Shown in pieces: positions 1 through 40,500 of a DNA stretch of 64,000 bases (within the stretch, counting starts at the first letter, position 1; each line of letters begins with the position of its first letter). The translations under genes and the position numbers were made by a program. The stretch is from contig DF237250.1 of NCBI GenBank assembly GCA_000708835.1, positions 1 to 64,000 of the forward strand, written 5' to 3'. The notes below the pieces were generated by a model. That model worked only from the letters and a program-made list of their open reading frames with translations, made no database searches and had not been told where the DNA came from. The stretch is from Klebsormidium nitens (lineage: Eukaryota; Plantae; Klebsormidiophyceae).

Positions 1-282
1 GAGTCAATCTTAGACACGAGAGAACCTGCTTCCAACCATCACCGGCGGTTGTATGAAGCACGCTATCGGCACTCGAATCTGGACAAATATAGAGATTGGT
101 CTTGTAAGCACTATAGCAAAGCTAAAGTGGAGATATGTTTACGCAAAGCTTTTATCCGATATTCCGAAGGCAAGAGGCTTCGACCTTCCACCATGGCAAA
201 GCTTGTAGTTGCCGGTTATTTGCAAGAAGGCAACTTGCATTCGAGGCCAATGAACGAGATCTGTCAGTGGACTTGTCAATGA
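1..282 (+). CDS. Small basic hypothetical protein, reading frame open from base 1 (5'-truncated by window)
   Basis: Frame reads ESILDTREPASNHHRRLYEARYRHSN...; C-terminal part resembles the ORF at 5728-6144 (RYR...I.L..A..R...G...P.T..KL..AG). Confidence 0.45.
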   Translation, partial: ESILDTREPASNHHRRLYEARYRHSNLDKYRDWSCKHYSKAKVEICLRKAFIRYSEGKRLRPSTMAKLVVAGYLQEGNLHSRPMNEICQWTCQ

Positions 283-434
283 TGTGCTTCTCCATTGCAT
301 GTTCCATCGGACCGGCCGTTGCTTTTCACACGTTTGCATGGAGGGCGATTTCTGTCAAGATCAAGATTTCAACGCGTCCGGATTCTAAGAATTATTTTCC
401 TTAGTACTCATCATAGGGGGTACCCAGCCCTAGA

Positions 435-2901
435 ATGAATCCGGACCTCAATGAAAGCATCTCATCGTACCGGAGCCTTGATCTCCTGCCGGTTACGTTC
501 AAGCTTACATGGAACAAACTGGATAAGAAGAAAGACGCAAGTAACTTTAGATGCTCATACTCAAGCATCGTGGATGAGATTTCTTGGGGGTTGCACGAAG
601 ACACAATTCGCAACTGTTCCGACAAGAATGCCCTTGCCCTTCTATGCGGACGATCGGGCCCAAACAGCATTATTATGATTGATATCGACTTGCCCAAAAT
701 GAATGAAAGCAAAACCTTTGCTAATGGTCTTGATGTCTGGAAACGCTTGACAAAAGCGCACGGCGAACCTCTCACCTGGACAGCCGAAACACAGAGTGGC
801 GGCTTACATTACTACTTCAGAGCGGATTCCCCCGGACTTGAACGGAAGGCAGACGCGACCAAGTTATACATCAACTCCAGCCAAACGACTATCGATTTTC
901 GAGGCAATGGCATCTGCTTCGCCACCCCCCACTACCATCATTCGTGACGGTGAAGAGCATTCATACAGATGGCTAAAGTCTCCTTGGAAAACGAAGCTCG
1001 CCCGCCTTCCGTTGTGGCTCGTAGATATCTTGAACGCTCAAGACTCCACAAAGCAAGCTGCCCAAGGGCCGGCAAAACACCCCAGCAATAATACATCAAT
1101 TGTCAGCAAAGCAAAAGCAAAACAGACAATAACCACAGAACTCTTGTCTCCGCAAGCAACCTCCTCTATCGAGGCAGAAAAGGCAATCCAAGTTGCAACG
1201 CAGCTACTGCGAAGTAGATGCAACGACCAAACAAGTTTCTACAGAGGCATCAAGCTTCGAGATGGGGAAGCCATCTTAAAGTTCAGAGTGAAGGAGAGCA
1301 GAATTTGTCCTTACGGAGAGGAACATACGAGCAACAGTTTCAGCATCATCTGCAACGGGATCTGCATGGAATACCGCTGCCTGTCAACAGGATGCAAAGA
1401 GCGACAAAGAGTGCTTCTCGGGCTGCACCATTGGCCTTCGCTTTCGATTTCCAAAGCACGTTTTGATCTGCGCCCTATCGAAGAAGCGGAGAGGATCGTA
1501 TCCAACGCTAAAAGCACTATTGACAAAGTGCAGTATCAACATGTATGTCAGCAACTCACACAAATTGCTATCGAAACGATGAACCACTATTTCTGCGTTC
1601 TAGACGGCAGCTTAAAAGTGCTTTTCATTGAAACTCTCTACGTGCAAAGAGGAAATACTTGGGTGCCAAATGACAGCATCCTTCGAACAAGAGCTGAGTT
1701 CCTGAAACGGTCCGAATCATTCAACCTGGACAGTCTCAAGATTGGCAACCTTGGGAAGGTGTGGTGCAAGTCATCAGCGAGAAGGACGCTCAATAAGGTA
1801 GTCTTCGAAGCGAACTCTCGTCTGGTTTCACCTGACAACTACAACCTATTTTACGGGTTTCCCTTTGCTTACGAAGCGCATCAACCTGTTGACATGATAG
1901 AAATCGATCCTCTCTTGAAGCATCTCAACGAGGTATTGGCAGACAATGATCCTGCTGTAGCAGAGTACATTCTAAATTGGTTAGCTCATCTTGTTCAGAA
2001 GCCGTACAAAAAAATCGGAACAGCTTTGGTCTTCAGATCTGACCAAGGCGCAGGCAAAAGCATAATCACTGACTTTGTGGGCAAACACGTCATCCGACCC
2101 CGTTATTACTTGTACTGCAACGATATGGAGAAAGTCATAGGCAAATTCAACGGAATAGCAGCAAACCTCCTCTTGGTATGCTTTGATGAGGTGAGCTCTT
2201 GGGGGGGAGCATACAAATCGAACAATCGACTTAAAAGTCTGATCACACAGGATACAACAATCCTGGAAAAGAAAGGTATCGATCCCCTTCAAGTACCCGA
2301 TCTGGCTAATTATTGGTTCAACACGAACGAAGACTGGCCCATCAAAAAAGAGGCCACAGACCGTAGGTATGCATGCTTCGAAGCATCGGACTCTAGAATC
2401 GGAGATCAACCCTACTTTGATCGGCTTTGTGAAAGCCTCACTAGCACTACAGCTGAACATTTCTATCGGTACTTGATGTCAAGAGAAGGCGTCGATAACT
2501 GGAATGCAAAACAGATCCCCAAAAGCAAGTGGAGTTCAGCCTTAAAGGAGCACTCAATCCCCTTCTGGGCAAAGATGATATGCGGTCTGCTAGACAACGG
2601 CATATTTTCAGCGGATTTGAAGACAAAGGTGCTGAGCGCAACCATATTTAAGACATATAGATCCTTCTTGGACAATCAAGGCGCCAAGGAAGATCCACCG
2701 ACACAAAAAGACGTGTTCATCGGTCGCATCAAACGGACACTTGGACTTGACGGTTTCAAAGACACCACTGGTCGCGGCTTGATCTTTCCAACGAGGAGTG
2801 AGCTCGAGAAAAGGCTGCAAGAGATACGTTTACACGTCGACGAAGTGTACTGGGAGGGGTCATGGGCGTTCGACCCAACTCTTCTAAGCTCGTCGGCTTG
2901 A
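435..2901 (+). CDS. Intronless bifunctional primase-polymerase (Prim-Pol) + Zn-finger + SF3 (D5/NrS-1-like) helicase, about 820 aa, with one +1 frameshift at ~921-930
   Basis: 435-947: IIMIDID, TQSGGLHYYF, IDFRG (AEP Prim-Pol motifs). Continues in the 796-2901 frame after GCCACCCCCC (PPTTIIRDGEEHSYRW..LPLWLVDILN). CPYGEEHTSN..YRCLSTGC Zn finger; Walker A QGAGKS, Walker B VCFDE, motif C FNTN, DRRY. Confidence 0.88.
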
Positions 2902-2929
2902 TATTTTACAATTTCTAACCCATCACTTA

Positions 2930-3990
2930 TTACTTTCTCTCGTAAGTTAGCATCGCTGTTCCCCAGTCGTGGAGCATCCTATCGGCTAACTGCTTCCTTT
3001 CAGCAATAGAATGATCATTCGCGAAATGTTCGCTGATGAAAAGGTGACGAAGGTGGTTTTGATTTAATCGCTTTCCTTTTGGAAAAGTGATCGAGCCCAC
3101 AAATTTTGTAAGGTAATTGTCTGACATGGCTTCTGTGGTATTCCCCAGCCGAGACAGAACGAAACCTCGAGGAACTAGCTCTATTGATCGTTTTATGTAG
3201 TTGTTTAGGCGCTGTGAGAGTTCAAACTCTTTTGTCCCATACTTCTTGCTCGTCTTGTATGCCTTCAGTACAAGCAGGAACTCACCACTCTTGCTCTCAC
3301 GAAGGCAATTGCCGGTATCATGAAAGGCTGCTTTGGCCTCATCGCAATAAAAGGTTCCGTCCGCTTTCTGAAGAGGAAGACCGCTGAGATCCCTTCGCTT
3401 CGGTGGCTCGTGGATATTGAACGCAAGCAGTAGGTGCTGAAACACTATTTTTACTTCGTCTCTGCTCAGGTTTGATCCACCTTTATGATTTGGCATGATG
3501 CTCCTTCGTATCTGCCTGTTAAGCTCTTCCGCTTTGGCTTTCAACTCTTCCATAGAGATCCAATTGGCAGCTTCTTTCTCTGTGGCCTTCTGTTGGCCAA
3601 CCTTCTTCATCTGATCCAACTTCTTCTCTAAGAAGCTCTCAAAATACTTTTTATAAGTCTCCTCCCAACCCTTCGCGTGAGCACAAACCATTAACGGGGT
3701 GAGTTTATTCTTATAGGTGCCAGGGTTAGGGTACTTTGCGTTGAGTTTTTCAAGTATGATATCTACTGATTTGATCCAATCCAACGTGGATGGCAAAACC
3801 TTCTTGCCAGTCACCAGGGGATGGATTATTCGCACACTGTTGAGGTACTGTTGAATGGTTATTCAGCCCGTTTTCCATCCTTGAACAGGTTGCGCAAAGC
3901 TGCCTCACCTGATGATATCGTTCGCTGTGCATCCCCTTGACTGTTGGAAGTGAATTCTATGCTCGATTGAACGGAAGCTTCTGAGTCCAT
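2930..3990 (-). CDS. Tyrosine recombinase/integrase of the viral/PLV-like type, with one frameshift at ~3862
   Basis: PPKRRD (Arg), YKTSKKYG (Lys), NHLRHLFIS (xxLRH), LADRMLHD (His), MLTYERK (Tyr). An ATG at 3990 gives 43 codons that join ITIQQYLNSVRIIHP by a -1 shift. Confidence 0.85.
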
Positions 3991-4711
3991 GACTACCTTA
4001 TACTACAGAGGCCTATAATAATTCTAAGATTAAAACGAGGCGCCTTCTTGAGATGCGTCCCCTAGGAAATCCTGTTCTAGAACTCTTGGCTGCCCGGAGC
4101 GGATACCCTGGAAAAGATGTATCGACCATTGCCTCATTTGTCCTTACCACCTCAGGTGGCCTTTCCAAATTCCTACCTTCGCTGCTGAACGTGGGTAAGA
4201 CATGGGCTGCATATCCATGAAATTTGCCCTTTTGTCTCGATTCTGGAATTCAAAGACTTCAGATAGAAACACAAGCGGCTAAGATGCACCACCGTTTGAA
4301 TTCCAGATTCAGAGACAGGATCGTCAATCTTCCGCTGTAATCCAGAATTCAAATTCCAAGGCGGCAACTTTTTCCAGTCAGTGGTCATTTTTGACAAAAA
4401 CTCCCAGAAAGTTTTGCTCCCGGGGTCCCAGATTAAGTCCTAATTCGCGCGAAATCGGGACTCCCCCTTCTAGAATGGTGACGGAGGCCATTCATCTTTC
4501 AGAGTGCTCCATGTCGGGGACACGTTGATCAGAGAGGGGCAGTTTTCGTCAATCGGCTGTCAAATTTTGCCAGGTCCACGAGCCGACCAAAGTGCTTTAG
4601 GGGGGGCGACTTCTGAAGCAGGCAGCATGATGCACTGTGCATGGTTTTTATCTGATCTTACATTCATACAGCCGGTCCATGGATAATGCATGCTCATAAC
4701 GGAGCTTTAAG

Positions 4712-5272
4712 GTGCTGCTTGCACTCGACCACAATCAATCAGATGCTTCGATCCTCCTTGAAGACACTCGGCTGGAAATCGATGCTGAAAAAGGTCGTGT
4801 ATCACAGGCTGGCACACGCGCTGGAAGCCAGCTATTTAGGGCGCTTAAATCTGACGGTGCAGCTAAAGCACCCTGCACTGTCTATGTACTGCTGAGGGAA
4901 ACGACTAGAGGCTCATTGAAGAAGCATTTCGGATATGGAGTGTATATCTCTCTGGTGAAGAAGTCCGACAGGCCGCTCGGACTTCCGTTCCAAGGTACGT
5001 TTTCATCATCAGCAACCAAATTACCGGTCAAAGAGCTTCTTGAGATGCACGCCTCCGCAGAGTCGAAGCCAAAGAAGAAGCAACAGAGCACAAAGAAATG
5101 CAAAGCTGTGAGCAAAGCTACGAAGCAGAAATCAAAGGGCCATCCAAAATCAACTACTAATAAAGGCAAGGCGAAGCGATCAGCTACTACGGGCAACTCA
5201 GAAGCCACTGGAAAATCTCAGAGCAAGGGAATGACGCTCAAATGTGTTGCAGTCGAAAGCGACGGGGATTGA
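4712..5272 (+). CDS. Hypothetical protein with Lys-rich C-terminal tail
   Basis: 186-aa ORF within the island; no family recognised; start codon non-ATG. Confidence 0.3.
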   Translation: MLLALDHNQSDASILLEDTRLEIDAEKGRVSQAGTRAGSQLFRALKSDGAAKAPCTVYVLLRETTRGSLKKHFGYGVYISLVKKSDRPLGLPFQGTFSSSATKLPVKELLEMHASAESKPKKKQQSTKKCKAVSKATKQKSKGHPKSTTNKGKAKRSATTGNSEATGKSQSKGMTLKCVAVESDGD

Positions 5273-5319
5273 GAGACGAAGGCCATGCTAGATTTATCTT
5301 TCCTCTCTGATACAAAAAG

Positions 5320-5667
5320 ATGGAGAGAGGTCATACGTACTACGTGCCAAAGCAGCCACGAGGGTTATATAGTTTGCTTCCGTTTATCGACGAGATCGAG
5401 AGCTTTCCACCCTTTCGCTATGAAGGCATCGTGGATAAAGGCCTCAGAAGTCCAGTGGACATGGATTTCCTACGGATGGGCGTTTTGCTTTTACTTCACC
5501 AACTCTGTAACGAAGACCTCGTTGTGTCAGAAGACGACGTCAAGGCCATAATCTCAGCAGGTGTTTCGTACGGTGAATGTGCAGGGTATTCCGAGAAGGA
5601 GGGAGAGCTTCTATTGTCAATCGCCAAGGGGGTACTCAAGGTCTGCAAGGATGCCGAAGACGATTGA
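5320..5667 (+). CDS. Hypothetical acidic protein (115 aa)
   Basis: ATG-initiated, protein-like composition, co-oriented with neighbouring small ORFs, AT-rich spacers on both sides. Confidence 0.45.
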   Translation: MERGHTYYVPKQPRGLYSLLPFIDEIESFPPFRYEGIVDKGLRSPVDMDFLRMGVLLLLHQLCNEDLVVSEDDVKAIISAGVSYGECAGYSEKEGELLLSIAKGVLKVCKDAEDD

Positions 5668-5727
5668 AATTTGCGTTGATCTGTTGGAAAAAAATTAATG
5701 AGAGTATAACAGAACACTTACAACAGG

Positions 5728-6144
5728 GTGGAGTCGACCAGCAGCACTGAGATAACAATCACTCGTCTTGTCCCTTGTAACCTTTGCGGAAAGAAGCATC
5801 GTATCATTCAAAATGCACTGTTTCCAAACGACTCGGAAATTCCTCTATCGTCCGAGGGCGTGCCTCTGTGCAGATTGGTCCAATTGAACAGGCAAAATCG
5901 CTATAGACGTGACAGACAGTGTGTGCTCAAGAACAAGAGTCTCTGGTATCAGAAACATAAGCAGGCTATCTTGCTACAATTAGCTGCCAAGCGTCTAAGG
6001 AGTGGAAGGACTCGGCGACCTCATCCAAAGACCATCTCGAAGTTGAAGGAAGCAGGCGTCGAGTTTGATTCTAACAATAGAATTCTTACCGCCACGTCAG
6101 AGTCAACGGCAGCCGTTGACGAGCTAAAAGCTTCGAACCCTTAG
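5728..6144 (+). CDS. Small basic hypothetical protein with CxxC (CNLC); paralogue-like to ORF 1-282
   Basis: RYRRDRQCVLKNKSLWYQKHKQAILLQLAAKRLRSGRTRRPHPKTISKLKEAG aligns by eye with the 1-282 product. Confidence 0.45.
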   Translation: MESTSSTEITITRLVPCNLCGKKHRIIQNALFPNDSEIPLSSEGVPLCRLVQLNRQNRYRRDRQCVLKNKSLWYQKHKQAILLQLAAKRLRSGRTRRPHPKTISKLKEAGVEFDSNNRILTATSESTAAVDELKASNP

Positions 6145-6254
6145 CGAAGCTCAGGCTTCTAAAACGGGGATGGATTGAGACTCGTACAAGTGTATGTTTG
6201 CCGGAAGCTGCCATGCCAGTCTATCAATGCAGGCCGTTGCATTATGAATCTGCC

Positions 6255-6555
6255 TTCGTTAGACAGCACGGACAGTAAAGACGGATATCTCAAGATCTAT
6301 GGAATAAGCTGTTCTAACGGTCAGAGACATGCCATGATGCGATGCTCATGTTTGTCTGTGAGTGTGGGCCTTCACACAGAGGTTTGACTCGATAGACAGC
6401 ACGGACAGTGAAGACGGATATCTCAGGATCTATGGAATAAGCTGTTCTAATGGGCAGAGAAATGCCATGATGCTGGCAACCCAGTTGTTTGTCCGTTAGT
6501 GTAGGCTTTCACACAGAGTTTTGACTTGATAAACGTACGGACAGTGAAGACGGAG
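6255..6555 (+). repeat. Imperfect tandem repeat, ~133-bp unit x ~2.3, each unit beginning with the triple GACAG motif
   Basis: GACAGCACGGACAGT(A/G)AAGACGGATATCTCA(A/G)GATCTATGGAATAAGCTGTTCTAA at 6262 and 6395; degenerate third start at 6531. Confidence 0.9.
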
Positions 6556-9500
6556 TTTTCGAAGGAAAGTTAGGGAGATAAACACTTGTCTGCCATACGA
6601 TTTCTAGTCAAGGATACTCGCAAAAAGCCGCTGGATCAATGGGTGCGTTCAAGTCCTCTTGTCAATCAATGACCCTGCTTACCACTCTATCGTTCCAATC
6701 TACTATGTTCCGTTGGGTTATTCATTCAGTCTCCATCCTCGATAGCCCCTGATCTGATGGCCTGCGTCTACAAGTCTCGATTCGGATGGCTTTCCTGGAC
6801 CTTCCATGCCATGGGCTCTGCAACTCTTGGCTAAATCCTGAGTAGTGCGCATGGGGGGAGCTCCAGTATCCTCGAATCTGACGCCGTCAACTAGCCTATT
6901 CGGATTGTTGTAAGCCGCCATCAGAGACTCCGACGTCTCAAATGCTTTAATGTCGATGGTACCCTCGTTTTTCAGAAAAGCTGCGAACGGATCGTTTGAC
7001 TGCTCCCAGGACTCCATGTACCTTTTGCTAGTTTCTGGCATGTCAAGTAGCCTCCTCCCGTTCTGGTACCAGTCCTTTGCTCCTATCACCAGGAATACCA
7101 GCAGCTTCTCGACCTCTGCCATCAAAATGCTTTCGAGCCCATCATCTCTGACCCCATGAAGTGGGTTTCTGGGATTGTACCCCGCCTCCTCGGGGTAGAA
7201 GAAGCGCATTGGAAAGACCAGGGTAAGCAGACGGCGCTTCAGCGCAATGGTCCACCTCTTTGCACGCGGCGGGTAGTTGGTGCAGAGAATGTGCTGCAGC
7301 CAAAAAAGCCAGGAAAGAGAGACTTAGCTCGTAAACCGGCACCTCGGGTCTTGTCGAGTTTTCAGCGGAAGTCCAAGCGTTAGTTGACAGGGTAACTGTC
7401 CACCAAGGTAAGCATGCTTCTACGAATCTAGCTTCAAAGACAGCGCAGACAGCAAACACAGACTTCTCAACACTCTCGTAGAATCCGAATGAAATGGCAC
7501 GCATTTTCGTCTCCAAGGAAGAGCTCGAGCAGACGTCTCGAGCAGATTCTGTAAAAAAAGCCCCAAACAGCGGTGTTGTCTATCAAGTGCGGACCTTCAC
7601 TTGCAAACTGTACTTCACAGACACCATGGACAGCAAAGACGGAGATTTCAAAAGAAGTCAGAAGATGAATGGATGTCTGCCCGTCAGATTAGTGCTTTAT
7701 TACTCACCAGTTGTGTCGTTTCAAACGTGACGTAGTCGCGGTAAAGCGCTCTGCTCGTGATGGTTGCCTCTCCGGTGAGCCGTTTCAAGTTGCTCTCCGC
7801 AAACTCGTCAGTTTCTTCTGACTCCAAACAAACAGCCATCCGAACCCCTTGCAGTCCTTGCGCAGATCAAAAAGAGAAGTGCTTTTAGAATTCTGCTGCA
7901 AGATCCGCATACAAAGCAGCTCGCCCTTTTCAAAAAAGATGAAGCTCTATGGTCTAGCAATGCAATTACGAATCAGCACAGCTATACCTTGCATCAGAAG
8001 GCACCTCAGACGTTGTCTAGAACTTCTTACCTGCTTCGTCCGGGCTGGCGGATCCCTTACTGGGCGGCCGCTGCCCCTTCGAGGTCACCAGCATATCCTT
8101 TGACACATCCTTGTAGAACGGACCGATTAGGCGCTTCAAGAGCGTCAACAAGAGGCTCTTTCCAGCGCCGCCCTCCCCGATCATGATGAGCATGACCTGG
8201 TTGGAGATGTGACCCGTGATGCCGTAGCCTAGAATGCGCTGAAGATAGGCTAGAGCTTCTGGGGTGTGCATGATCTCCCTCAGGAACTCGCCCATTCGAC
8301 CTAACGGCGTGTGGACCCCAGTCGAAGGCCACCTGTACCCCAACATGAACGACCACAGGAACTGCAAAAGTAGAGTGTCGGGTGTCAGACTGCCTATCGA
8401 ATTTTATCCCTCTTTCTTCTTTTCACTTCAGTCGATGCGCTGGTTGAAGCACAGCTTTGCGCACTTTCTGAAGCGCTTGAAACATACAACGGAGTTGAAG
8501 TTTACGGTTAAAAGCACGCTTGCGGAGGCCCAGGCGGCCTGATCTTGGAAAGTTGGCTACCAGTTAGATACACGAAGTACTCAACTCCGAATGAATGACT
8601 CTAAAAGAAAGACTCAAGTGAGCCGCTCTCTACCCTCATTGAGATCGTCTCGCTCCTGCCTTTCGAACTTTTGGCCCAAGCAAAGGGAGCTTTTTCATTG
8701 CAGTACGCTTCGACTGCAAGCTCACCTTGGGATGGTGCGGTACTAACTCGGCACTCGGCAGGAGGATGACGCCGTTCAGCAAGGGAAGAGCGTCTCTGTT
8801 GGAGTTGAGCAGCTTCTCGAACCCCGCATCCAGGCAATAGCCTTTCAGGGTCGTCATGATGTTGGACATCCTTGCGTTCCAACTAAAGTTGGTCAGCTTT
8901 TCTGTCTTCTTCTTCTTTCTCTTCGGGGTCCGTTCCTCGCTGCCATCATCCTCCTCGCTCTCGTCTTGCTCAATGGCAGCCCCAGTCTCCTTTTGGTACG
9001 CAGCGCTGATCTTGTTGAGTTCTCCACGGCACACCTTCTGAGCCTCCCGCCCACCTGGGTCTGCCATCCACACCGACCCTGTCCAATAGTACCACTTCTC
9101 GTTGGAGTAGACGAGCTTGTGGCCGGTGTAGGTTTGCAGGCGATCGATGATCTGAGCGCCGCCTTCATCACCTGCATAGATTGCTGTGAGTTAGCACACG
9201 CTGGCACGGAATGAGAATCCAGTCTAGCCGTTTTAGATTGCAAAGATTCATGTGTTGTGCAGATTGCTTGTGCACAATTACCACCTTTGCAGACCCCTTT
9301 TTACGCCTGAATCAAGTATCGTTTGACCCATCGAAGACCAAATAAGGCACGAGAATATGAAACCGAAGCGAAAAGCTCTGTCTTTACTGTCCGCACTGTC
9401 CATGAAGAGGACTCTATGTTAAAAGATTCGCTTGACGGACAGAATGGCTGTCAGTGCAGGGTAGGCGTGAGATCTTGATAAAAGAGATCAGGTGGTCAGA

Positions 9501-12451
9501 GAGCAGGCAGTCCAAGAAAAAAGCTTCGTATGCTTGAGAAGTGAAGAGCTGAGTGGAGTGTTTTAAGCTGGCAAAGGCCCCAAGCCCCTCTTATTTCCAT
9601 ATTTGAGTCAGTAATCTTTTCGGACAGCTGATTGAAATAGGTTCTTGGACCTTTACCCTTGAAACCTCACCTGCTGCTATCGAGAGGTTCTCCCGTAGAA
9701 ACGAAAGGGGCAACAGCTGTCGGTCCTCGTACAGTCGATCCCGCTCGCTGTTCAACGGTTCTGCATCCGAAAACGCAGCCGCGACAGGGAAGGGAAGCCG
9801 TCCGAGCTTCTTGTTTCTGCGCCCCTCGCCCTTGCACCGCTCGCTGTGGCACACATACGTGATCTCCGTTCCTCTCCTAAAGAGGCCGAACTTGTTGCTG
9901 CGGTGTGCCTGCTCTCCTGCCTTGAGGTACGGGCAAGTCGCCCGGCCCCCAGGACCGTTCTCGAAGTGATACATCACAGCTCCTGAACCTGCAATCGTGC
10001 TCAGTTCTGGCTTGCGAAAGACAGAACTATTGTCCCCGTAGCTGCTGAGCATGCCCCGCATGATCTCGACGACTTGGTGTTGCAGAACTGGATCCGCAAG
10101 ATCGGGCGGATTCACCGAAGCGGGCGCGCACGTAATCCCAGCCCCTGCCGCAGCTGCTTTCCCAGCTCCTGGACGGCTTTTTGACGCCCCGGCTGCTTTC
10201 GAAGAAGCCCGCTCGTTCAGGATCTCTATGAACCATCCAGGGAGGGGAGGCAGAGCATCTACAGCTGGTAGGTCCCCTCCGCCTGCGACAGTGTACCGCG
10301 CAACCTCCTCGCCCCGCTGATAGGAAGACGGGGGGGACGCAATCATGCCACTCGAGCTCACGCCTCGCATATCACCCCCCACTTTCTTCAACGTTTCCTT
10401 CCCCGTTTTCGGGTCCGGGATCCTGAGCTCGAACTTCGCAAAGTGCGTTGGTGTGCCTGCCTCTTAATCCCGCGTCCACGCTTCGTTGATGCGAGAAGTA
10501 GAGATGGACACCCCCACTGCCGGTGCGCACTCGCGGCCCCGTGAACGCGCCGTGCTCGCTCTCCCACTCAGCCAGCTGCTCCATGCCCCCGTCTTGAAGA
10601 TCGAAATCCAACACGAGAACGCCAGAAGGCGCTGTGTTGATCAGCAGGGGATTGTCGCGGGGGTCGAAGTATGCTGAGCTGAGGCAGTTGGCGAGCGTAG
10701 AATCTTGCCACTTCTTGGGTGGTAACATGGCCTTCTTGCCCGTCTTAGTGTTGAAACTGGTGGATGCTGAGAAAACGACGTAACCCCTCTTGACCATGGC
10801 CCGAGCTGCAGTCTCCTGCACAGTATAAAACTTTCACTTTTGAGCAGCCAGTCCAAAACTTTGTCCGCGCTGTCCGCACTGTCCATGAAGAGGACTTTGT
10901 GTTACGATGGCTTCGCTTGACCGACAGAGCGCGTGATGGATGCAATCTTTCAGAGCAGACCATTCAGTCGGAGAGCAGGCGGTCAAAGTCAAAGCTTTTT
11001 CTCTTTGCACGAGAAGTGAAAATAACTGTCTACGCTGTCCGCACTGTCCATGAAGGGGAATCGCTTATAGAAGACACAATCCATAGACAGCACCGATGTC
11101 CAACGTAAGTCCAGGCGTTGGTGGACACACTTACTGTTCACCAAGAGAAGCATGCTTCTTGCGAACTTGCCTTCAAAAACAGCGCAGATGCCAAAGACAG
11201 ACTTCTCAAACTTTCGCAAAAATCTCACAGAAGGATGCACCAACATCGTTATTGTCAGTTGAAATCAACGTCTCTGAAAGGTGGAGCTCCTTGAGGATTT
11301 GTTAGAATGACTCACCATTGGGTATACTCTGGTCTCTCCTTTCGTTTCAAGGCGCGCATTGGACCAACTCAAGCCCGAGGTCTGTTCCCCGTCCTCTTTG
11401 AACGGCTCGTCATTAGCACCTTTGCAGTCCTCCCCTGATGCTGATGGCCGCGCGAGCTCTCCCGAACCCTGCAAAGAAGTCAGAAGAAGTGACAAATCAG
11501 AACTACTGAAAAGCTCTGTCTATGCTGTCCACACTGTCCATGAAGAGGACTCTGTGTTAGATGGCCTCTCTTAACAGACAAGCATTCTGTCAGCGCGCGT
11601 GATGGATGCAGTCTTCCAGAGCAGACCAGGCAGTCAGAATCAAAAGTTGTCTTATGCACGAGAAGTGAGAAAACTCTGTCTTTACTGTCCGTGCTGTCCA
11701 TCATGGGAAATCACTTATAGAACACGCATTTGCATAGACATCACTGCTGTCATCTGGCTGAATCTTCAAGGGGCAACAGATTGCATTGAGCACAAGCCCA
11801 GGTAGAAAATGTCTCACTTAGCAGCCAGGGCTTGCGCTCTTGCCGATGCTTCCCTGGGCCGTGTTTCCCTGCAGAGACTTCCTTGCGGCTCACTGGTTGA
11901 GCCATCGGCCCCTGCTTCATTGTGTTTGCGTTTTCTGCCCCGTTCGTGTTGGATGGAAGGGGCGCTAATCTACACAGGACAATATGGAGCGTCTCAGATC
12001 AGGGGATCCTCTGTGCAGGCAATGGTCCTGCCTTGAACGTCCATTCGTTGGAGACATCATGCTGTCTCTGGAGACAAAAGCTTGACAAGGGATTCGTCTC
12101 GAAGGACAGCTTGGACAGCAAAGACAGGATCTGTGAGAACCTGATGACTGGTGTTTTTGTAATCTGCGAATAATTGTCAGGCCCATACTCATCAGATTGG
12201 GTCACTCACTGGTGCAAGTTCACCAAGGAAATTGGTCCTACAGTGACGCATCCAATCTACTCGAGTGTTTCTTCTTCTGACTTTTCTTCAAGACTCTGTC
12301 TTTACTGTCCGTGCTGTCTATGGAGCAAATCCCTGTGCGAAAACTTAAATTGATAGACAACATATCGGCATGGCATCATGACATCTTTATGCCAAAAAGA
12401 ACAGGTTATTCCATGGGTCTCAAAAGACCTGTCTTCACTGTCCATGTGGTC
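6262..12451. repeat. Dispersed family of triple GACAG-N4-GACAG-N4-GAC(A/G)G motifs (14 copies, both strands)
   Basis: Plus strand: 6262, 6395, 6531 (degenerate), 7439, 7620, 11178 (degenerate), 12105. Minus strand (CTGTC x3): 9378, 10861, 11026, 11516, 11676, 12296, 12429. Confidence 0.88.
6718..11468 (-). CDS. Spliced Prim-Pol + Zn-finger + D5_N + P4/D5-type SF3 primase-helicase (about 930 aa modelled), one +1 frameshift at ~10390-10463; further 5' exons possible
   Basis: Exons 11468-11316, 10815-9671, 9171-8726, 8361-8031, 7856-7708, 7293-6718 join through GT-AG introns with matching phases (0,1,0,1,0). Motifs: VLVLDFD, TGSGGVHLYF, DMRG, CPY..HRSN..VCHSERC, WYYWTGSVW, LLNGV..PHHPK|FLWS, GEGGAGKS, AVCLE, KRLTGEATITSRALY, LCTN, KRRLL. 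Confidence 0.85.
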
Positions 12452-13083
12452 TATGAAGGCCAATCCTATGCGAACGGATTCTCTAACCAGAACATACTCG
12501 AAGGAGAAGGACAAGGTGCAGGCAGCAGCTTTACCTTGTCATCATCCAGCTCAGCTCGAAGGGCTGCCCTCCTCTCCTCGAGAGCACTGGTGTAGAGTTG
12601 CTGTCTCGCATCCTTACCATATAAGCTCTCCATCTGCAAAACACACCAGAAATGCATCGTCAAGAACGTGACCTACCTGCACCACAGCTTTCAATGTTTA
12701 GGTTGAACAGGTTGCAACCTAGACAGAACTTCCACTCGACCACTGAAAACACCACCATCATTGACAAGCAGCCAGTGTTCTTCTAATGCTCATGACAACT
12801 TGCATCAGCGAGTGACCAGTATATTGGCCACGCGCTCACTTTGTGGGACTCTCATGAGCAAGGAAACCCCTTGACAGGGCGCCAAATCTTGATCGAACAC
12901 CTGTCTGCTGCTCAGCTAGGGTGCCCTCTGCTGGATAACATCGGGCTGCAGGGCTGCATTGGCGACGCAGGATTATGCGTGTGCTGCTCCTGAGACGTGG
13001 GTTGGACGCCTGAGCTAGCGGCTTTTGAGGGGCTAAGAAAGGATTGTGCTGGATGAATGATCGAACGAGGGGGCAGGAGCTCC

Positions 13084-13378
13084 TTTTATAGGTCCCTTTC
13101 AACCAACTGCCATGAACCAAAGTCTTCTCTGGAAGCCCTGAGTCAGACTCTCCTCCAGCGATTCCGAAGCGGTTGAGCGATTCCGAAGCCATTCGTAGCT
13201 CTCTCTGAAGAGGGGAGCTGACTCAAGACGAGTGCCAACTCAGATGGTTGAGCGCCGGTTCCGAAGCTTGCTGTCTCTCAATAGGAGACCTGACTCAGGC
13301 TTCTGAGCAGATTAGGGTTTAGCCGGCATGGCACGTGGTCGAAAAGGCACGTGGTCAATGCCTTACAGTTGCGCGAAA
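13084..13378 (-). promoter_or_regulatory. Candidate promoter upstream of the spliced primase-helicase: TATA, telo-box, G-boxes, E2F site
   Basis: Minus strand: TATAAAA 13090-13084, AAACCCTA 13320-13313, TTTCGCGC 13378-13371; CACGTG twice at ~13332 and ~13348. Confidence 0.45.
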
Positions 13379-14315
13379 ATTTTTGGCTGGTTTCTTTCCC
13401 TCCACGGTAACCCCAGAAAGTCCCTAACCCAGACCAGTTCGAGGGGCAGCTTGGCCAGGGGGGCTGGTTTCTCGGCCAGGGGGACACGTGTCGCGCGGAT
13501 ATTGGCTGAGCTTTAGCCAGCAATCTCTTGGTTAGAGGGTCCCGGCTCCCGGTCCGGTTCGGCTGACATGGCGCCCCCTGATTGGCTCCAATTTGATGCC
13601 GAACTTTCTTGGGCTTGTAGGGGCCGCAGCTGCAGTCCGAATTCAGCAAGAGTTAGCAGTCCCAAGGGGCTGACCTGTCGCTCTCTCAGTGGCCAAACTT
13701 CCATGCCGAGCTTCATATGGCTCGCTGGCCGAGCTTAGCTCGGGAGTAGAGCCACCTAAAATAACAACATATAATGACACCACAACGTTGGACAAGCCAA
13801 CTCAACCCTTGCGTGCACATGTGTTAAAGCCTATAATGATACTACAGTGTGCAAAGCAGGACATCAAAGGATGAGCCTCCCCAAGACACAGATCGTTTCA
13901 TCAATGTTGTCATGAGTACATTATATCAAAGACATGGGGCGAGGTAGGTCATGATAAGTCGAGTAGGCGGCCACTAAGTCTCCAATCAGCTGTTCCGTAT
14001 AGCATCTCGATGTCACACGGCAGTGGACCGAGTGCGACGCAGCATAGCTTAGCATGGCATGCTCACTTTGGAGAGTGGTTGCATATGCACCATAGAGGCT
14101 CGGTTTCTATATTGATTGACGCTCCAGGAAATGATGCGTATGCATGCCACTATAAGTCGCTGAATTATGAGACCACAGCAAAGCAACACATGTGTCAAGA
14201 GAATGCCTATGCCGTAGAGACTATTGAGACCTCGATAGACACCCAAGTTAAAAGCTCAGCTCTTGCTTCCTCATGTTCAGCCGCTTGATATGAGACCAAA
14301 CTTTTAGGTATCCTT

Positions 14316-17300
14316 TTAGGTATCCAATAAGGTCGGGTGGAATATCTTGCACACCGCCTGAAACTGTTCCATCGTGACGTTGGTGCTATAGGTTCTCACC
14401 TCCCTAGAGACCCCAAAAGGATAGAATAGGTCGTGCAAGCCTCGCACAAAGGACTGCAAAGCGCCTGGAATGTGCCCCAACTCTTTCAGAGATGGACCCA
14501 ACATGCTACCTCTGCGGACAAACTGGGCCTTCTCAAGATTGTTGATATCCATCTCATGTCTTCCATGGAGCTTGCCCCCGCTACATCTGTCTAACATTGA
14601 TATGAACAACCCCTCTAACATGCTGCTCTCCGTGTGAGGCTTGCCGCATAGGATAGACAGTGGGGCATATACTAGGGTGCCTGTAATCTGCTGCACACTC
14701 CCTGTGGGGCTGGTTGGTTGGTCTCTTGGATCTGTGTTTGGTGGAAGAAGCTGTAACAATGAGCAAACGATAGTTCTTAGGAAAAAGTAGCCGAAGGCTA
14801 GATGCAACGAAGTCCATGGACGCGAAGTCCTGCAGTACAGCTTCCACATCAGCTATTCAATCGTTAGGGACTCACAAAGCTATTGATATTGACGTAGTCA
14901 TCCAGTCTGTAACAGACATCTTGACAGTCAGACTTGCTGCTACAGCATATTGAAGAAGACCTCGCACCTACCTTCCCAGCCGAGAAGTCAAACAAAACAC
15001 CGCGGCCCTCGTAAACGCCAATGTTGTTTGGTGTCACGTCGCGCTGCAGCACGCGCGCCTCAATGCACCCTCGGATGGCACGCGCAACGTCGGAAGTGAC
15101 CTGAGACAAGGGGAAGCAAGATCACGAAAGTGGGGAAGTTGCGTGAACAGTGACAGTAGCTATGGTACTTGGTTACCTTTAGATGGAACCTCTACATGAT
15201 AGGGCTTCGTTCAAAAAGGGGCTCGATCATATAAAACGAATGTTAGACCACCCCTGGATGCTTGCAGAGAGCTTCTTAATCTTGTACTTAGGTAGCTTTG
15301 TGGTAGTCAAGAAACCGCCCTACAACATAGTCTAGACCAGAGCGGTTGGTAAGCGTGTAACACAGAGGACTTTGGAAGGTCTGCTTCTCGTCAAGGAAGC
15401 TAACAGCTTCATAAGCCTCCTATGTTGTCCAAGATGCTAGGAGTGAAGAGGTTCCGTGCTTACCTGAGACAGCAATTGGAGGCCAAGTTCTGACGTGACT
15501 GGTTGAGCAAACGGATGCAGCAGGACCGCGTGCCACTTCGATGACTGGTACTTTATTACATCCGCAGCGAGGAGAGTCACAACTCGTGGGACTTGGTGTT
15601 TGGTCAGCTCTGAGAGGAGCAAGGTCTGGGCACAAAAAGCAAAACCTCATTCATGGCATTTGTGTTCCACTAAGATTCAAGAATGAAGAGGAGTCTGCAC
15701 AAAGCAGCCGAAAGTCTTCTGAGGACTAAAGCAGCACTGAAGGATGAGAAAAGGAACACCCAGTAAGAGAGTGCTTTGGGACTGTCAGTAAACGAATCCG
15801 CAAATGACCATTTTGTATGGACCAATAGAAAGTAAAATTTGTTCCCTTCAAGGTTGGCAGAATAACTACGCATATGGCCAGCAAAAGAAGCTCAGCACAA
15901 TCTTCGTTTGAAGCATGTGTTATCAACAAATCAAGCAACATGAAGAACGTGGTAGATCTTGCAAGGTCTGAACTACACAACAGAACCAACCACGTATGCC
16001 TTCCAGCTATTAACATAGATCACATAAGTAGGCAGATTCGACTGACAACCAGAGATTGCTCACCTCACGCTCAGATTGATTGAGTTTCAGAATGCACCGA
16101 CCCAGCCCAGCAATCCGCGCTTGGAACACCAGACTACCCTGGCCCTGAGGCGCTGTGCCTCTGTGCACCCGAGGCGCCCTCCCTCTGTCCAACTGGGGCG
16201 CTGTGCCTCTGTGCAGCAGCTCGAGCTTTTCTATCTTCTTGTGCCCAAGCTTTTTGACAGACGGCACGGTTAGTTGCTGAAAGCCAAGTGCTTTCTTTCC
16301 GCTAGCGAGCACCCTTAGCACCCAAATGAAGCCTGGAGACTCTTCACTTACACTGAAAGGATTGGCCCAGTCCTTTGCACTGAGAGCACCTCGAGATGAT
16401 GGCGGGAGAAAAATGCCACCTCTACTGAGTTCATTGTTATCCCAATAGTCACCATATGAGATCGCTCTGGCTGCTGATCTAGCGTACTCCGGACTCTTTT
16501 TGTTTGCTGGCCGAAGCTGTGGTGCGTTTCAGGAATCGAGTGCCCCAGTTTCGCTTCGACGAAGGACACCGCTTGGGTCCAGGCAATAATTGGCGAAGCG
16601 AGAAGACTGCAGTCGGGTTTGCCTCGGGGGTTCTGAAATTCATTGCTTGAGCTATGGGTATCTTCTAGCACCATCTCGCACTTTGCAGCCTTCGCCATGG
16701 CTCCTAAGATGGTCATGAGAACAGGCTGCATGTGCTTTTCTTCTGACAGTCCTGGTTCTTTAGCTTCCGGAATTGCATCAGCAAGCGAGAGGCCTGGAAG
16801 ACCTGTCGGAAGCTTCAACTCTGGGTTTGGCTGATCATCTTCATTGTCCACGTCAACGGCCTGACCTGCTTCGTCGCGTCTCCGCTTTTCGCCAGCAGAC
16901 AGTTGCTCTGCATTTTCGCAAGAAGAGGAGGAGGAGGACATTGTTGAAAAGCATTTTCTCAACGATGCAAATAACGATGAGGACCAGAGTTGAACAAGCA
17001 ACTCATGAAAAATCCCTAAGAGCTTACCCAGGAGCATCCAGCTGCTTCTTCGCTGCTTGCAAGACAGCCTAGCATTGTAAGCATCCAGAATTGTAAACAA
17101 TTGCAATCCTCAAGTTGCAAAGAGACTGCGACAGTGCAATGGAACGTTGTTAATAGGTCAACGAGCCATCACTTACTTTGCCTCTTATAGACCGCACCCT
17201 CAGCTACTGCAGTGGGGAAGTTTTTCAAGACTTCGTTGACGGCAGTCTTCACCATCTTCTTGGATACATGAGCGAGGCACCGCATCTCCTGAACCACCTC

Positions 17301-20413: not shown

Positions 20414-21975
20414 GGACCAGCTTTCCTGCCCCTACAAAACCAAGAGGAATATAGGAGACTGAATAGTAATTTGTCTCAACAAACATCCAGATGCACAATC
20501 ACGAGGCGTTTGCACCTTTACTACGTATGCAACTCTCACCAGTGCAGACTTACAAACACCAGAGGAACAACCCTTAAAACGGCATCCACCTTCTTCAGAC
20601 TGAGTCGCTCAGTTGCGTTCTTCAAGCTGGTCCAAAAGCGGCAGAGCCAACCTCTGCCTGACACATTGTTCTATATTATGAGGGCACATAGAGGCAACCA
20701 GATAAGCAACTTACGTTCACAAGATCCTCAGACGCGCTTCAGAGATGCGCCACTACAGCAGTCCGCAGAATGCCAATTCCTGTGCCAACTTGCCGGGCAA
20801 CCTGAAAGCCCTGAGCCACACCAAGCTGCCCTGCAGCTCCCTAAAGCCCGGCCGCTTTTAGCTCTGTCAACCCTTAGCAGGAGGTCTAAACGCTGACCGC
20901 TTAAAAATACCAGAGGTAACCATTGAAACTTTGGAGACTCAGCTGGAACAAATCAATCTCAAACGACAACGTTCTTTTATCGAAGTCCTGCGATGGGAAC
21001 GGTCTGCTTGGTAACGGTATCCCCTGTCCCTGACTGGGCTCGAACCTCAAGCGAATTGAAGGAAGTTCCGGAATATTTGTTCGGGGGGACACGTGTCAGG
21101 TTCTCACTGGTCACAATTATGCCAACAATCACTTGGTTAGTTGCTTGGTCAGGGCCAGGGTCGGGTTCACATTGGACTTTTTGCCCTAATTCGGTCTGCC
21201 ATGATTCGCAATTGGAAGTACCCATGCTGACGTTTTAGCAGTTTCGGATTACGATAGCCAGACTGGGTTCACATTGCAGTTGGGTCCGTCGAAATACGTC
21301 TCGTAATTCAAAACTCTCGTCTGGAGCCATGTGACTGACCACGTGAATCGTATTGAGTACACTATGTACACAAAACCGTCAGCAAAGGCTGAGGCGTGAC
21401 GATATCCAACCTGTACTTATCGTGATTGGGCTATCCAGATTCCAAACCGCGTTTCGATAGCCTCCCGGATTTGAGTAGGTTTTCGACTTCGATAACTTTT
21501 GAAGTTCGAAGAATTGACCGTTAGCTCGCCGACTCTGGCGGGGTGACGCCGAGTGACGCAAGTCTAGCTATCGAATCACGATAAAAGTTTTGAGAAAGTC
21601 CAATGTGAACCCGACCCAGGCTGCGCAATACCGTACGTAGACCCATCTGCATGTTGCTAGGTAGTCGGAGCTTTCCTGCCAAGATCGCCAATGCATCATT
21701 CAAGTGGCTCATTCAAGTGGCTCATGAGCAGGACGATAAAAAGTCAGCTGCCCGAGTTGTGCATCTTGGCGGCAGGCCCTGGGAAATTTGACGCCCGCAA
21801 CTTCAAGGAGCTCTTGCAAAGCTCACCGGTTGCCCGCCATGGTAGCGGAGGGTGGTGCTCAAGGTCCCCTCGAATCTCCAGTTGCTGGCTTTTATTTGCC
21901 AGCCGTAGGAGAATTTATTTGATTTTGAGGGACTTAGGTGTTTCACTACCGCAACAGATTTAGAAAGACGTCATC

Positions 21976-37531: not shown

Positions 37532-40500
37532 TCATTTTGTTGCCGGCACCTTCAACCTGTGCGTCCTAGCATATTCGACAAATCTTTCCAGGTCCTTCTG
37601 GATGATGCCCTCGACAATCGGTGTGAGACCCTGGCACACAAACAAGTGGTGTCAGCTTATAGCAGAAGCAACAGACAGATTGATAACTTGCCAGGGCCCC
37701 GGAAGCCGCCCGAGTACCAAAAAGACAGATATGGCATTTGAATACCGTCCCGCTGTCATGGATTGCAATCCTCGCCAAAAACCGTGAAGCACCCAAGTCC
37801 GTCAAGAATACCGAAGCAGAAGTCGAAAGCAGGCCTCCAAGCACACATCATAGGGAAAGCTCAAGTTGAGGGATGGCGATGCTGGAGTCGTCTGAATTGC
37901 CAAACGCACGCGCCCTTCTTTTCCCCGTTTCTTCCAGTCCAGGGAAGCGCACGCAACAGCGCTTTGAAAGAGACGACCGAAGCTCTGGACAACCATACGT
38001 CAAAAGGACGTGGCTCAGAACTCAATGAGCGTTTTGACAAGACTCGCGGGAACCAGTGAGCATTGGAGCTTTGTCGAAGTAACATAGTAATACCCGGGCA
38101 AAATTGACTCAAAAACGGATTGCGCAGTTGTTGCAGCGAGCTATCTCCCAACCAGGAGCATGCGCACAAGAACTGACGGTAAATGTCGCATCAGCTCCTA
38201 AAATCGGCATCGGACGCGCAAAGCTTCAAGAAACTGCATGCTCGGCCCGGCGAGAAAGAACTTCGGCCAATCTTCCATATGCATGGAAGCTCTCGAAGGT
38301 TTTCAGGGATCCCCCTTGGGCGCTCACCTGGGCCAGGGGCGCCAACACGCCCGGGACCTCGTACGATATCGTCATCTGCACGAGCCAGCGACTGACGTCA
38401 GGGTTGGCTGCGCAAACGTTAGCGGGACGTACCTCCGAGCAGGTTTCGTCGAGCGTTCGCAGTACCTTTATGCTGGCATGGTTCCGTGTAACGCTGCGGC
38501 TGAGTCGCTTTCTTACATACTTGTTCAAAGTTTGGCTTCCACGATGATGGAGAATGTTCGGTCATCGCCATGAAAGCATCTTTGTACGGACTGCCGCAAT
38601 TCTGGTCAGAGCTGTGTCGTTTCAAAAGCTCTGGAACCGAGTGGTTTCGCAAGGGCTGTAGCGACCGACCTTGATTTGGCAGCTTCCGTCCCGGTTCTTG
38701 TAAAAGCGGACCGCCCCTCTGCAACAGAATGCTCAGTGGTCAGATTGCAGACCCGAATTCAATCGACGAGCACTTAACCACTTTAAGAAGACTCTGGCAA
38801 CAGGATGCTCGTCTCAAATAAACGGAGCTAACCTCAGTCCTCTTCAGGGCCCAGAATGTCAAGCCCAACGAGTGGCGAGAGATGTTGTTCGGTGCCTTCT
38901 GCACCAGAGTCAACCGGGCCAACTCGAAAGAAAAGCCCAATTTGACCTTTGAGGTCGTCAAGTCCCTTCCAGCAGCGGAATCAGATAAAAGGTTCTGGCA
39001 GTGCGCCCAGTGAAAACACTTGATTTCCAACTTAAAGAAGTCTCAATCTGGAAGACAATCGTGCAATCCGAAGGCAAATCTCTGATCTTCGTTCAATGGA
39101 TTATCAAGGTATATCTCGCTGCCTTTTCAGAATAATCAAAAAGAATATCGAAAAACAAGCCTTCCTCCTCTGCTCGAGCTACCAAGACATTGATGCGGTA
39201 GCGACGGGCTGGGACAATGTGGGGCATGCGGATCCAGCGTCCAGAAATACAGTCTGGACGTCATTAGCAAGGAAGGATCACAAAAACGATTGAGATGGGC
39301 CTCAACGTGAATAGTTACTGCGACTGCAGTCCGGCTTTACAAGATCTACTGAGGCGGTTGAATATAAAGTATTGCGCAATTAGATGAAGGGACTGACGAG
39401 AACGTCAGGGTTTGTAAGAAGACTACTCGATAACCGACAGAACACAGGGCGGTTTGAACCCCTCAAATGCCACACGCCGGGGAGTCAATCATACCGAGAC
39501 TCTACTTTGACGTACCTGTTCGCAAGGCCGTCTACAGCCCGCCAGTGAATCTTCTGGTGGTGCAATGGCTGCATGTTGCGGGCAACCCAGGAAAACGTGA
39601 AGTCCTGATCAAAGGCGTTGTACTTAAGGGTCCAACGAGAGAGGTCGGGCGTGTCTTCGAGGACCTGAGAGAGAAAAGGAAAAAGTGTGTATTCTTAGAC
39701 GACTGTCGAAGAAGGGCTTGATACTCCCCGGTTGGGTGAGATCAGAAGCTGGTTACAATGCGAAGCTGTATTCCGTAGCCACCGGAATGTCGGGCAAGCC
39801 GACGATCGCCAAAAAAAACGTTTCAGAAATAAAAACTACCCCGTTTGGGGCCGTTCGCAGAACTGTCTCCGTGATCTGATCTGTACACTTTCAAAGCCCC
39901 CGGTGACGGCTTCTTCACGGACTGATAGCCACCTATTAACAAGAGTCCCACTGCCATAAGCGGAGAAATCTTCTGCGTTGTGAGAGCAATCTCGCGATTT
40001 GAAGATGAGTACGGGCGACGAAAGTAAACATAAAGTGGAGTATTGCCGTACGAGGTTGTACAAAGCATTCGTTGCTACCCCTTTGTGCGGATTCTTGCAG
40101 TAAAAGAAGACAATTACTCACCGGAGCATTGTTAAAGCTAAGCCAAAATTGAAAATAGCACATTATCGGAAATCTGCAAACTGCTGGTGCACTTGTGGTG
40201 CTCTCGACGTTCAGCCGATGCTAGTCTGCTTCAAGTCGTCTTGGTCTCAGCTGTCCCAAATGCTAGACCTGGTACACTTATCTGCCAGCCTGCAACAGAG
40301 GCCTTTTCCTACTCCAGTCAACTTCTGATGAGGAGCAGTGCCACGCACCTTCACTGAAGAGATCCAGGGCATCCATTGAGGGATCTTCTCACGGTCTATC
40401 CAGTGCTCCCAGCACTCCTCTAGTGGCACGTCAGCTCGAACCTCCGCACTGCAGATAGTTTCAGGACAAGGGTCTGGGGCCGGCTCGAGGTTATGACCAC

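Follow-up and report, generated by a model that had tools for sequence, protein, structure and literature searches.

A probable Polinton-like virus remnant beside a spliced replicase gene with origin-like intron repeats in Klebsormidium nitens

Introduction

End modules composed of a tyrosine recombinase (YR) and a primase-helicase have been described for Polinton-like viruses (PLVs) in passages of PMC11296320, and the general gene content of PLVs is treated in parts of two preprints (bioRxiv 10.64898/2026.06.19.733378; 10.1101/2022.07.28.501842). Second replicases, domain swaps and possibly mobile genes that join an archaeo-eukaryotic primase (AEP) to a superfamily 3 (SF3) helicase are discussed in a section of a further preprint (bioRxiv 10.64898/2026.10.13.758929). 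For the pRN1 plasmid, the origin was shown to lie 3' of the Prim-Pol-SF3 gene, and the P4 alpha protein binds origin repeats (as given in part of PMC4234260). Here we analyse positions 1 to 64,000 of contig DF237250.1 of the alga Klebsormidium nitens (the window), which hold two distinct things near one scaffold end: a left part (positions 1-6.1 kb) with a YR and an intronless replicase, called replicase 1, and a right gene (6.4-13.3 kb) that encodes a spliced replicase, called replicase 2 (Table 1).

The reading that we favour, with moderate confidence, is that the locus combines the decayed replication-integration end of an endogenous PLV with a related second replicase gene, interrupted by eight spliceosomal introns, that bears likely origin repeats in its introns and in its 3' flank. 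The left unit is probably a broken PLV module, a fresh example of an already known type. What sets the whole locus apart from known PLV remnants is the spliced second replicase with its origin-like intron repeats.

Results

The second replicase is spliced and its Prim-Pol frame is broken

A previous reading of these letters, made from the sequence only, had proposed a second Prim-Pol-Zn-helicase on the opposite strand. It is indeed there, since the minus strand gives Pfam matches to Prim-Pol (E 7e-10) and D5_N (E 7e-8). The gene is, however, no compact viral-style open reading frame (ORF): it is spliced from nine exons, starting at about 13278 and ending at 6412, and its frame is broken near 10464. 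Runs X6 and X7, which come from two studies, have contigs that skip all eight GT-AG introns. None of the matching runs is recorded as RNA and we guessed these two to be so (RNA-like); they give no cover over 1-6000, which we did not count as silence. The spliced coding sequence is identical to P0033 and, letter for letter, to K. nitens KFL_003010010 (725 aa).

In spliced order, a 116-aa upstream frame with the first half of the Prim-Pol is followed by the break near 10464 and then by an open Zn-D5_N-SF3 frame. The break is real: DNA and RNA-like contigs of organism A agree at this point, with no gap. The downstream 725-aa frame is open and has its Walker A and B motifs, motif C and Arg-finger-like residues. 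Run X5, which carries another organism label, provides a 5682-nt contig over 6024-11717 at about 98% identity. It has one base different at 10464, but 1-base gaps also occur in its exons (10187, 8360) and its depth is 2.6, so that an intact X5 copy is no more than a possibility; left of 5093 this run has no cover at 95%, which was not counted as evidence.

Eight members of the replicase 2 family are annotated in K. nitens, with 42-72% identity and one adjacent pair, and most of these paralogs either lie on small scaffolds or belong to the first genes of their scaffold. The Prim-Pol is unbroken in four other models (P0034, P0035, P0201 and P0202). Relatives of about 45% identity from other samples read through the site of intron 5, which bears a repeat (see below), and the alignment of these relatives breaks off precisely where the repeat-free intron 6 lies, with the VS(L) read-through seen in the window. 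Because of this difference, we suggest that intron 6 may be old, intron 5 having been gained later or else lost in the relatives.

In its behaviour, that is its introns and its spliced contigs, the second replicase is host-gene-like. Replicase 2 could then belong to a gene family that came from a virus and was domesticated by the host long ago, its helicase function being kept, with a PLV remnant adjoining it and the intron repeats as a passive relic. The eight canonical introns spliced in two studies, the open helicase frame with its motifs, the presence of the locus at about 98% in run X5 and the position of intron 6, apparently common to relatives from other samples, all agree with domestication. 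We nevertheless find it improbable: the Prim-Pol is broken in this copy in both DNA and RNA-like contigs, the N-terminal part is common to both replicases, and the junction of replicase 2 with the small ORFs on its left is found again at another, diverged locus, a recurrence for which chance adjacency is no explanation.

The kinship of the two replicases was measured by hhalign (P 99.3%, E 8e-21) over the Prim-Pol and Zn part. The common layout noticed from the letters, with the motifs quoted for it, is therefore present, and so is the proposed difference between helicase subtypes, DUF5906/VapE-like in replicase 1 and D5_N/P4-like in replicase 2. From the idea of two nested relatives, kinship at this shared part can be retained.

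Table 1. Positions of the features of the locus in the window (1-based).
Feature	Position	Strand	Basis or remark
Small basic ORF, 5'-open	1..282	+	weak likeness to the 5710-6144 ORF
Replicase 1: Prim-Pol (PF09250), Zn-finger-like, SF3 helicase (DUF5906/NrS-1-like)	435..2901	+	Pfam, relatives; intronless; 1-bp frame break near 922
Tyrosine recombinase, PLV/virophage family	2930..3990	-	relatives, catalytic residues, Cre fold; 1-bp frame break near 3862
Three 15-16 bp motif copies, alternating orientation, between the divergent YR and the small-ORF block	4237..4353		sequence repeat
Three small ORFs (4700-5272, 5320-5667, 5710-6144)	4700..6144	+	repeated at other loci
Three 133-137 bp modules in tandem, all with the GACAG 9-bp-period repeat	6252..6590	+	130-460 nt past the replicase 2 stop
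Replicase 2, KFL_003010010: Prim-Pol, Zn, D5_N, SF3 helicase, 9 exons	6412..13278	-	spliced contigs, Pfam
Exons of replicase 2	12840-13278, 12535-12633, 11818-11969, 11316-11468, 9671-10815, 8726-9171, 8031-8361, 7708-7856, 6412-7293	-	stop 6718-6720
Two origin-like modules in intron 8	7363..7670	+	repeat search
One origin-like module in intron 5	9365..9452	-	repeat search
Four origin-like modules in introns 4 and 3	10855..11751	-	introns 73% alike over 260 nt
Three modules in intron 2, including one inverted pair (12105 + / 12296 -)	12085..12460		long imperfect stem
Region upstream of replicase 2, partly repeated in the genome	13200..13610		loose ends at 13456, 13561 and 13606; not an established element end

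A GGACAG repeat is multiplied in the introns and the 3' flank

A GACAG motif with a 9-bp period has 19 matches in the window, all within 6262-12442 (chance mean 0.3) and none in the other 58 kb. Thirteen modules with a triple GGACAG and about 120-260 bp of homology lie in the 3' flank of replicase 2 (three modules) and in introns 8, 5, 4, 3 and 2, whereas introns 1, 6 and 7 contain no repeat module. The five left copies are oriented one way and seven of the eight right copies the opposite way. This origin-like array had escaped the sequence-only reading. The inverted pair of intron 2 folds as a long stem (z -2.3; 0/100 shuffles as good), the geometry of which resembles that found just behind phage D5-like helicase genes.

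We then compared the triple with a permuted motif in IMG/VR, taking for each pattern the first 80 loci with flanks (loci not de-duplicated). An SF3 primase-helicase is present within 3 kb of 15 of the 80 triple loci versus 2/80 for the permuted motif (Fisher p 0.001), and 10/80 versus 2/80 lie within 500 nt of a primase-helicase 3' end (p 0.03). In view of this association in viral contigs, the GGACAG triple is probably an origin repeat; its position and the stem geometry also fit a replicon origin, with predicted binding by the helicase. On four phage-like contigs (L148:3001-3164, L144, L154 and L161), inverted GACAG triples stand directly behind D5-like primase-helicase genes, and the stem of L148 is perfect (z -9.8). 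Inverted GACAG triples are in our opinion a candidate general origin signature of the D5-like replicase class.

Introners are intron-generating transposons. As far as the titles of papers on them tell, they resemble our case in that several introns of one gene share sequence. We rejected this explanation: in replicase 2, the parts that are alike lie within the introns and run in both orientations; they are found outside introns as well and are confined to this gene, with none of them in the other 58 kb of the window.

The left unit is a recombinase tail-to-tail with an intronless replicase

Replicase 1 gives a Pfam match to the PF09250 Prim-Pol (E 6e-10, 417-944) and another one to the DUF5906 helicase (E 7e-18, 751-2898), in a frame that differs from that of the Prim-Pol. 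Its relatives P0001 (924 aa, a single ORF), P0002, P0032 and K. nitens KFL_009560020 align over both frames or over the downstream one, and span the gene without an intron. The domains and the absence of introns are thus as supposed from the letters. A 1-bp frame break near 922 had been missed, and at this point other-copy contigs of runs X1 and X5 show a one-base difference. Its stop (2899-2901) and that of the YR on the minus strand (2930-2932), which lies 28 bp past it, confirm the tail-to-tail arrangement. Searches for similar loci gave no close relative with replicase 2, with the YR or with replicase 1, the last one having one distant locus (33%). This is a small virus-like metagenome contig (L001:1-6842), the DUF5906-type helicase of which is 33% identical to replicase 1; other ORFs on it look late-transcription-factor-like and fibre-like, candidate labels given by eye only.

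The gene called a recombinase is a tyrosine recombinase by its catalytic residues and its Cre fold; its frame break near 3862 had been overlooked, and full-length relatives, 80-82% identical, align in two frames around this point. The window sequence holds the catalytic set of the superfamily (R156, K203, H269-x-x-R272, H298 and Y307); among 107 aligned relatives, R156, K203, R272 and H298 are invariant and Y307 is near-invariant. HMMER found 1581 relatives. The window YR itself has no Pfam match, PF00589 being matched by 17 of the 107 relatives, and a sequence search of the PDB gave no match. An AlphaFold 2 model reached a pLDDT of 96.7, with Cre as the top Foldseek matches (E 7e-5; TM about 0.57-0.61 to Cre); it supersedes a poor first fold made from 9 sequences (pLDDT 49; Cre at E 0.06). 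The Atlas neighbours of a close relative (query P0019) are viral clusters in 30 of 30 cases, at about 0.98, and most commonly Preplasmiviricota.

In addition, IMG/VR was scanned with a YR motif, giving at least 123 stretches, of which 78 loci with long flanks were used; the flanks are at most 10 kb, so the gene counts are lower bounds. Among the matches listed, the profile of the window family matched 75 of these 78 loci, and within 10 kb of the YR the 74 clustered loci carry an A32 ATPase family in at least 28 cases, a Sputnik-type capsid family in at least 15 and either of them in at least 43 (families confirmed with Pfam); an SF3 primase-helicase occurs in at least 27. Locus L064 shows a tail-to-tail pair of YR and DUF5906 helicase as in the window, adjoining a virophage capsid gene. 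Two other viral contigs (L066:2623-7926 and L068:1295-3716) each hold two identical YR genes on opposite strands, that is an inverted duplication. The gene context of the viral YRs serves here as an analogy only, because the nearest ones are about 20-30% identical to the window YR and stand outside its clade.

A fragment of an integrated giant virus (nucleocytoplasmic large DNA virus, NCLDV) is another conceivable source of these genes, as several NCLDV-like contigs or inserts have been reported for K. flaccidum/nitens in part of PMC5294986. The best BFVD structure matches of the YR model include giant-virus proteins, and the sole metagenome locus with a replicase-1-like helicase is the small virus-like contig mentioned above. 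This origin appears very unlikely to us. None of the NCLDV core genes PolB, MCP, VLTF3 and A32 was found among the 35 window ORF pieces scanned (the spliced host genes were scanned in part), the sequence-feature neighbours of the YR are Preplasmiviricota, and the Prim-Pol is of PF09250 type. The D5 protein of NCLDVs bears a different AEP clade.

Diverged copies and setting of the locus

The data on copies are short Logan contigs. The left unit is multi-copy, since up to seven contigs (at 80% likeness) carry an alternative letter at one position; the summed depth is 122-190 over 1-2760, 74-106 over 2761-4140 and 79-97 over 4601-5980 versus 24 in the single-copy flank, depth not being a copy count. 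A contig of run X5 joins the helicase end to the YR at about 80%. The small-ORF block has other-copy contigs at about 78-88% identity. Its ORFs match nothing in Pfam, PHROGs, Atlas (one ORF queried) or the viral loci. One 1947-nt DNA contig of run X1 carries diverged copies of 5320-5695, 5969-6120 and 6724-7005, which amounts to two small ORFs plus a paralog's last exon, in window order. Therefore, the adjacency of small ORFs and replicase 2 occurs at least twice, which disfavours chance.

The 5'-open ORF at 1..282 has no Pfam or PHROG match. It is 37% identical to the 5710-6144 ORF over 43 aa, a score reached by 3 of 2000 shuffles; weakly similar basic ORFs hence flank the block of replicase 1 and YR on both sides, which hints that the layout is tandem or duplicated. 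Upstream of both units there is an E2F-like site, which we dropped because it is not above chance (9 seen versus 10.6 expected), and CpG depletion was uninformative.

KFL_003010010 is the lowest-numbered gene of a 108,447-bp scaffold and, from this numbering, the window start is likely at or near the scaffold end. The island extends past the left edge of the window, and beyond about 14 kb there are ordinary spliced, host-looking genes. That the contig is a contaminant or mis-joined is scarcely credible. Its left part has a GC content of 47% versus 51.5% and lies at the scaffold end, but exact DNA contigs of run X1 bridge 6051-7005 and 10873-15000, the 5682-nt contig of X5 bridges 6024-11717, and the nearest named proteins are from K. 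nitens. Contamination, named beforehand as a way to overturn the idea of an island, is thereby largely refuted for 5.1-15 kb; a single-copy segment, named likewise, does not agree with the several diverged copies elsewhere in the genome.

A capsid-less integrative element with two replicases, or an autonomous Prim-Pol-D5 replicon with introns that makes use of the neighbouring recombinase, could have spread within the Klebsormidium genome as a transposon, and we consider this possible, though doubtful. The eight paralogs at 42-72%, with their adjacent pair and their places on small scaffolds or as first genes of scaffolds, speak for it. So do the second locus that links the family to the small-ORF block, the gene's own origin-like repeats with one inverted pair among them, and the four models with an unbroken Prim-Pol; independent AEP-SF3 mobility has also been proposed (bioRxiv 2026.10.13.758929, in the part concerned with such genes). 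However, neither ends nor target duplications nor empty sites were seen in the window or the short contigs. The paralogs are old and one intron position is apparently common with a 45% relative, which fits slow gene duplication too. Moreover, the genome has PLV-group capsid genes in similar number (at least 7), and the YR family usually accompanies virion genes (at least 43/74 among the matches listed).

Capsid genes

Regarding what defines a PLV, the window provides an integrase (YR or rve) as a PLV/virophage-family YR with a Cre fold, broken near 3862, and a replicase (protein-primed PolB or primase-helicase) as two Prim-Pol-SF3 genes. For a unit of 15-30 kb with terminal inverted repeats (TIRs), no TIR partner was found within the window. 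It had been stated that no virion genes are visible, and this holds: 41 family profiles from PLV/virophage contigs match only the YR and the helicase in the window. With them, no double jelly-roll major capsid protein (MCP) was found there, and those built from 28 A32 and 15 minor capsid protein (mCP) ORFs match nothing. The profile set may lack MCPs of the PgVV type. On other contigs, K. nitens has at least seven PgVV-group (cluster 86) MCP genes, five of the seven listed being 71-100% identical to one reference, itself included (Table S5 of PMC10120064). With such MCP genes in the genome and profiles that possibly miss them, a capsid-less element is possible and a PLV remnant is likelier.

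Other features of the window

The spliced gene at 14254-17100 (minus strand) has high depth in the RNA-like runs X6 and X7, and its pieces have no Pfam match; by eye, a PD-(D/E)xK-like stretch is followed by a kinase-like loop, which we take to recall the restriction-endonuclease/kinase fusions expanded in green algae. A MITE-like 27-nt inverted repeat, 96% complementary with arms 414 nt apart, lies at 21154-21621, and 21084-21168 is 68% alike to 13479-13560. The 20 nt at 39967-39986 match those at 62555-62574 perfectly in inverted orientation, over a distance of 22.6 kb. Local repeats of 75-121 nt, tandem or dispersed, are found at 53432-53697, 44439-44790 and 59792-60390.

Discussion

Several observations weigh against the combination of a decayed PLV end with a second replicase. 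Among the contigs, none shows replicase 2 together with the YR or replicase 1 at another locus. Neither a capsid gene nor an ATPase gene is linked to the YR-replicase unit in the data used or, as judged with the 41 profiles, present in the window, outside which the left flank lies. No TIR or attachment (att) site was found in the window, the left end of the unit being likewise outside. The breaks at 922 and 3862 are confirmed by no contig of this copy and may be assembly errors; at 922, either a mutation or an assembly error may lie behind the one-base difference. None of the 27 helicase-bearing YR loci among the matches listed had two helicases. In a FastTree tree, the window YR stands in a clade of nine rows (support 100) with no IMG/VR contig inside, and shares about 20-30% identity with the nearest viral YRs. 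As for the repeats, L148 and L163 are near-identical, both control matches are also triples behind helicase genes, and the origin role is inferred from association.

We propose the following history for the decayed PLV end and its second replicase. In the intact ancestor, the Cre-like recombinase would excise and re-insert circular DNA, the SF3 helicase would bind the repeats behind its own gene and melt them as a hexamer, and the Prim-Pol would prime synthesis for extension by a host or own polymerase. A second Prim-Pol-SF3 module, mobile on its own and with the same N-terminal part but a swapped helicase, may have brought in replicase 2, which would have remained in the chromosome long enough for host intron gain; local duplication of the origin repeat may then have seeded copies into introns. 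The capsid module would either be situated beyond the scaffold edge, on the left, or have disappeared from this copy. As assembled, this copy cannot move by itself and would make at most a helicase without most of the Prim-Pol. The earlier notion of an endogenous self-replicating element in an algal nuclear genome thus stands for an endogenous, multi-copy and PLV-related locus; "self-replicating" does not suit this copy as assembled, because all three enzyme genes carry a frame break. A bolder version, which we regard as unlikely, would see here a capsid-less self-copying eukaryotic element with replicase 2 as a normal spliced nuclear gene and origins inside its introns, local re-replication creating new origin-bearing introns, and movement by means of the PLV-type recombinase.

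Taken alone, the pair of YR and primase-helicase is what one expects of a PLV remnant. Introns in viral or endogenous viral genes are also generally known. The point of note is a virus-type replicase family that is spliced and transcribed in a streptophyte alga near the land-plant lineage, with a probable phage-type origin repeat kept and multiplied in its introns. The repeat offers a concrete candidate sequence for what PLV-type Prim-Pol-SF3 replicases recognise as origin, the locus allows the recent proposal that such replicases are independently mobile to be put to the test, and it suggests how new introns might be made from the cis-elements of a replicon itself.

Comparison with known systems

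Neither this locus nor the presence of origin repeats within introns of a replicase gene was the subject of any paper in the literature searched, the coverage of which is incomplete. The endogenous PLVs of the PgVV (Gezel-14T) group, as far as described in the relevant parts of PMC10120064 and PMC11296320, resemble it by a PLV/virophage YR next to a primase-SF3 helicase, by diverged copies in an algal genome and by PgVV-group MCPs in the host. The locus differs from them in that no MCP, mCP, A32 or TIR was found in the window, by a PF09250 Prim-Pol N-terminus that was not found in the viral contigs examined, and by a second replicase that is intron-rich and spliced.

With the polisuviruses and mobile AEP-SF3 genes (bioRxiv 10.64898/2026.10.13.758929, section 13) it shares two replicases per element, domain swaps, repeats round one replicase and multi-copy AEP-SF3 genes. 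In contrast to them, both replicases are here Prim-Pol-SF3 proteins, the multi-copy family is nuclear and the repeats are in spliceosomal introns; section 13 of that preprint mentions no such case.

The pRN1-type plasmids and the P4/D5-type phage primase-helicases (portions of PMC4234260) likewise combine a Prim-Pol with an SF3 helicase, and on its 3' side the gene is followed by a stem or repeat that looks like an origin. Phage primase-helicases match at 24-30%, and the same GACAG triples stand behind D5-like genes in viral contigs. Unlike these systems, the K. nitens gene is eukaryotic, chromosomal and spliced, and its repeat is multiplied to 13 copies in both orientations.

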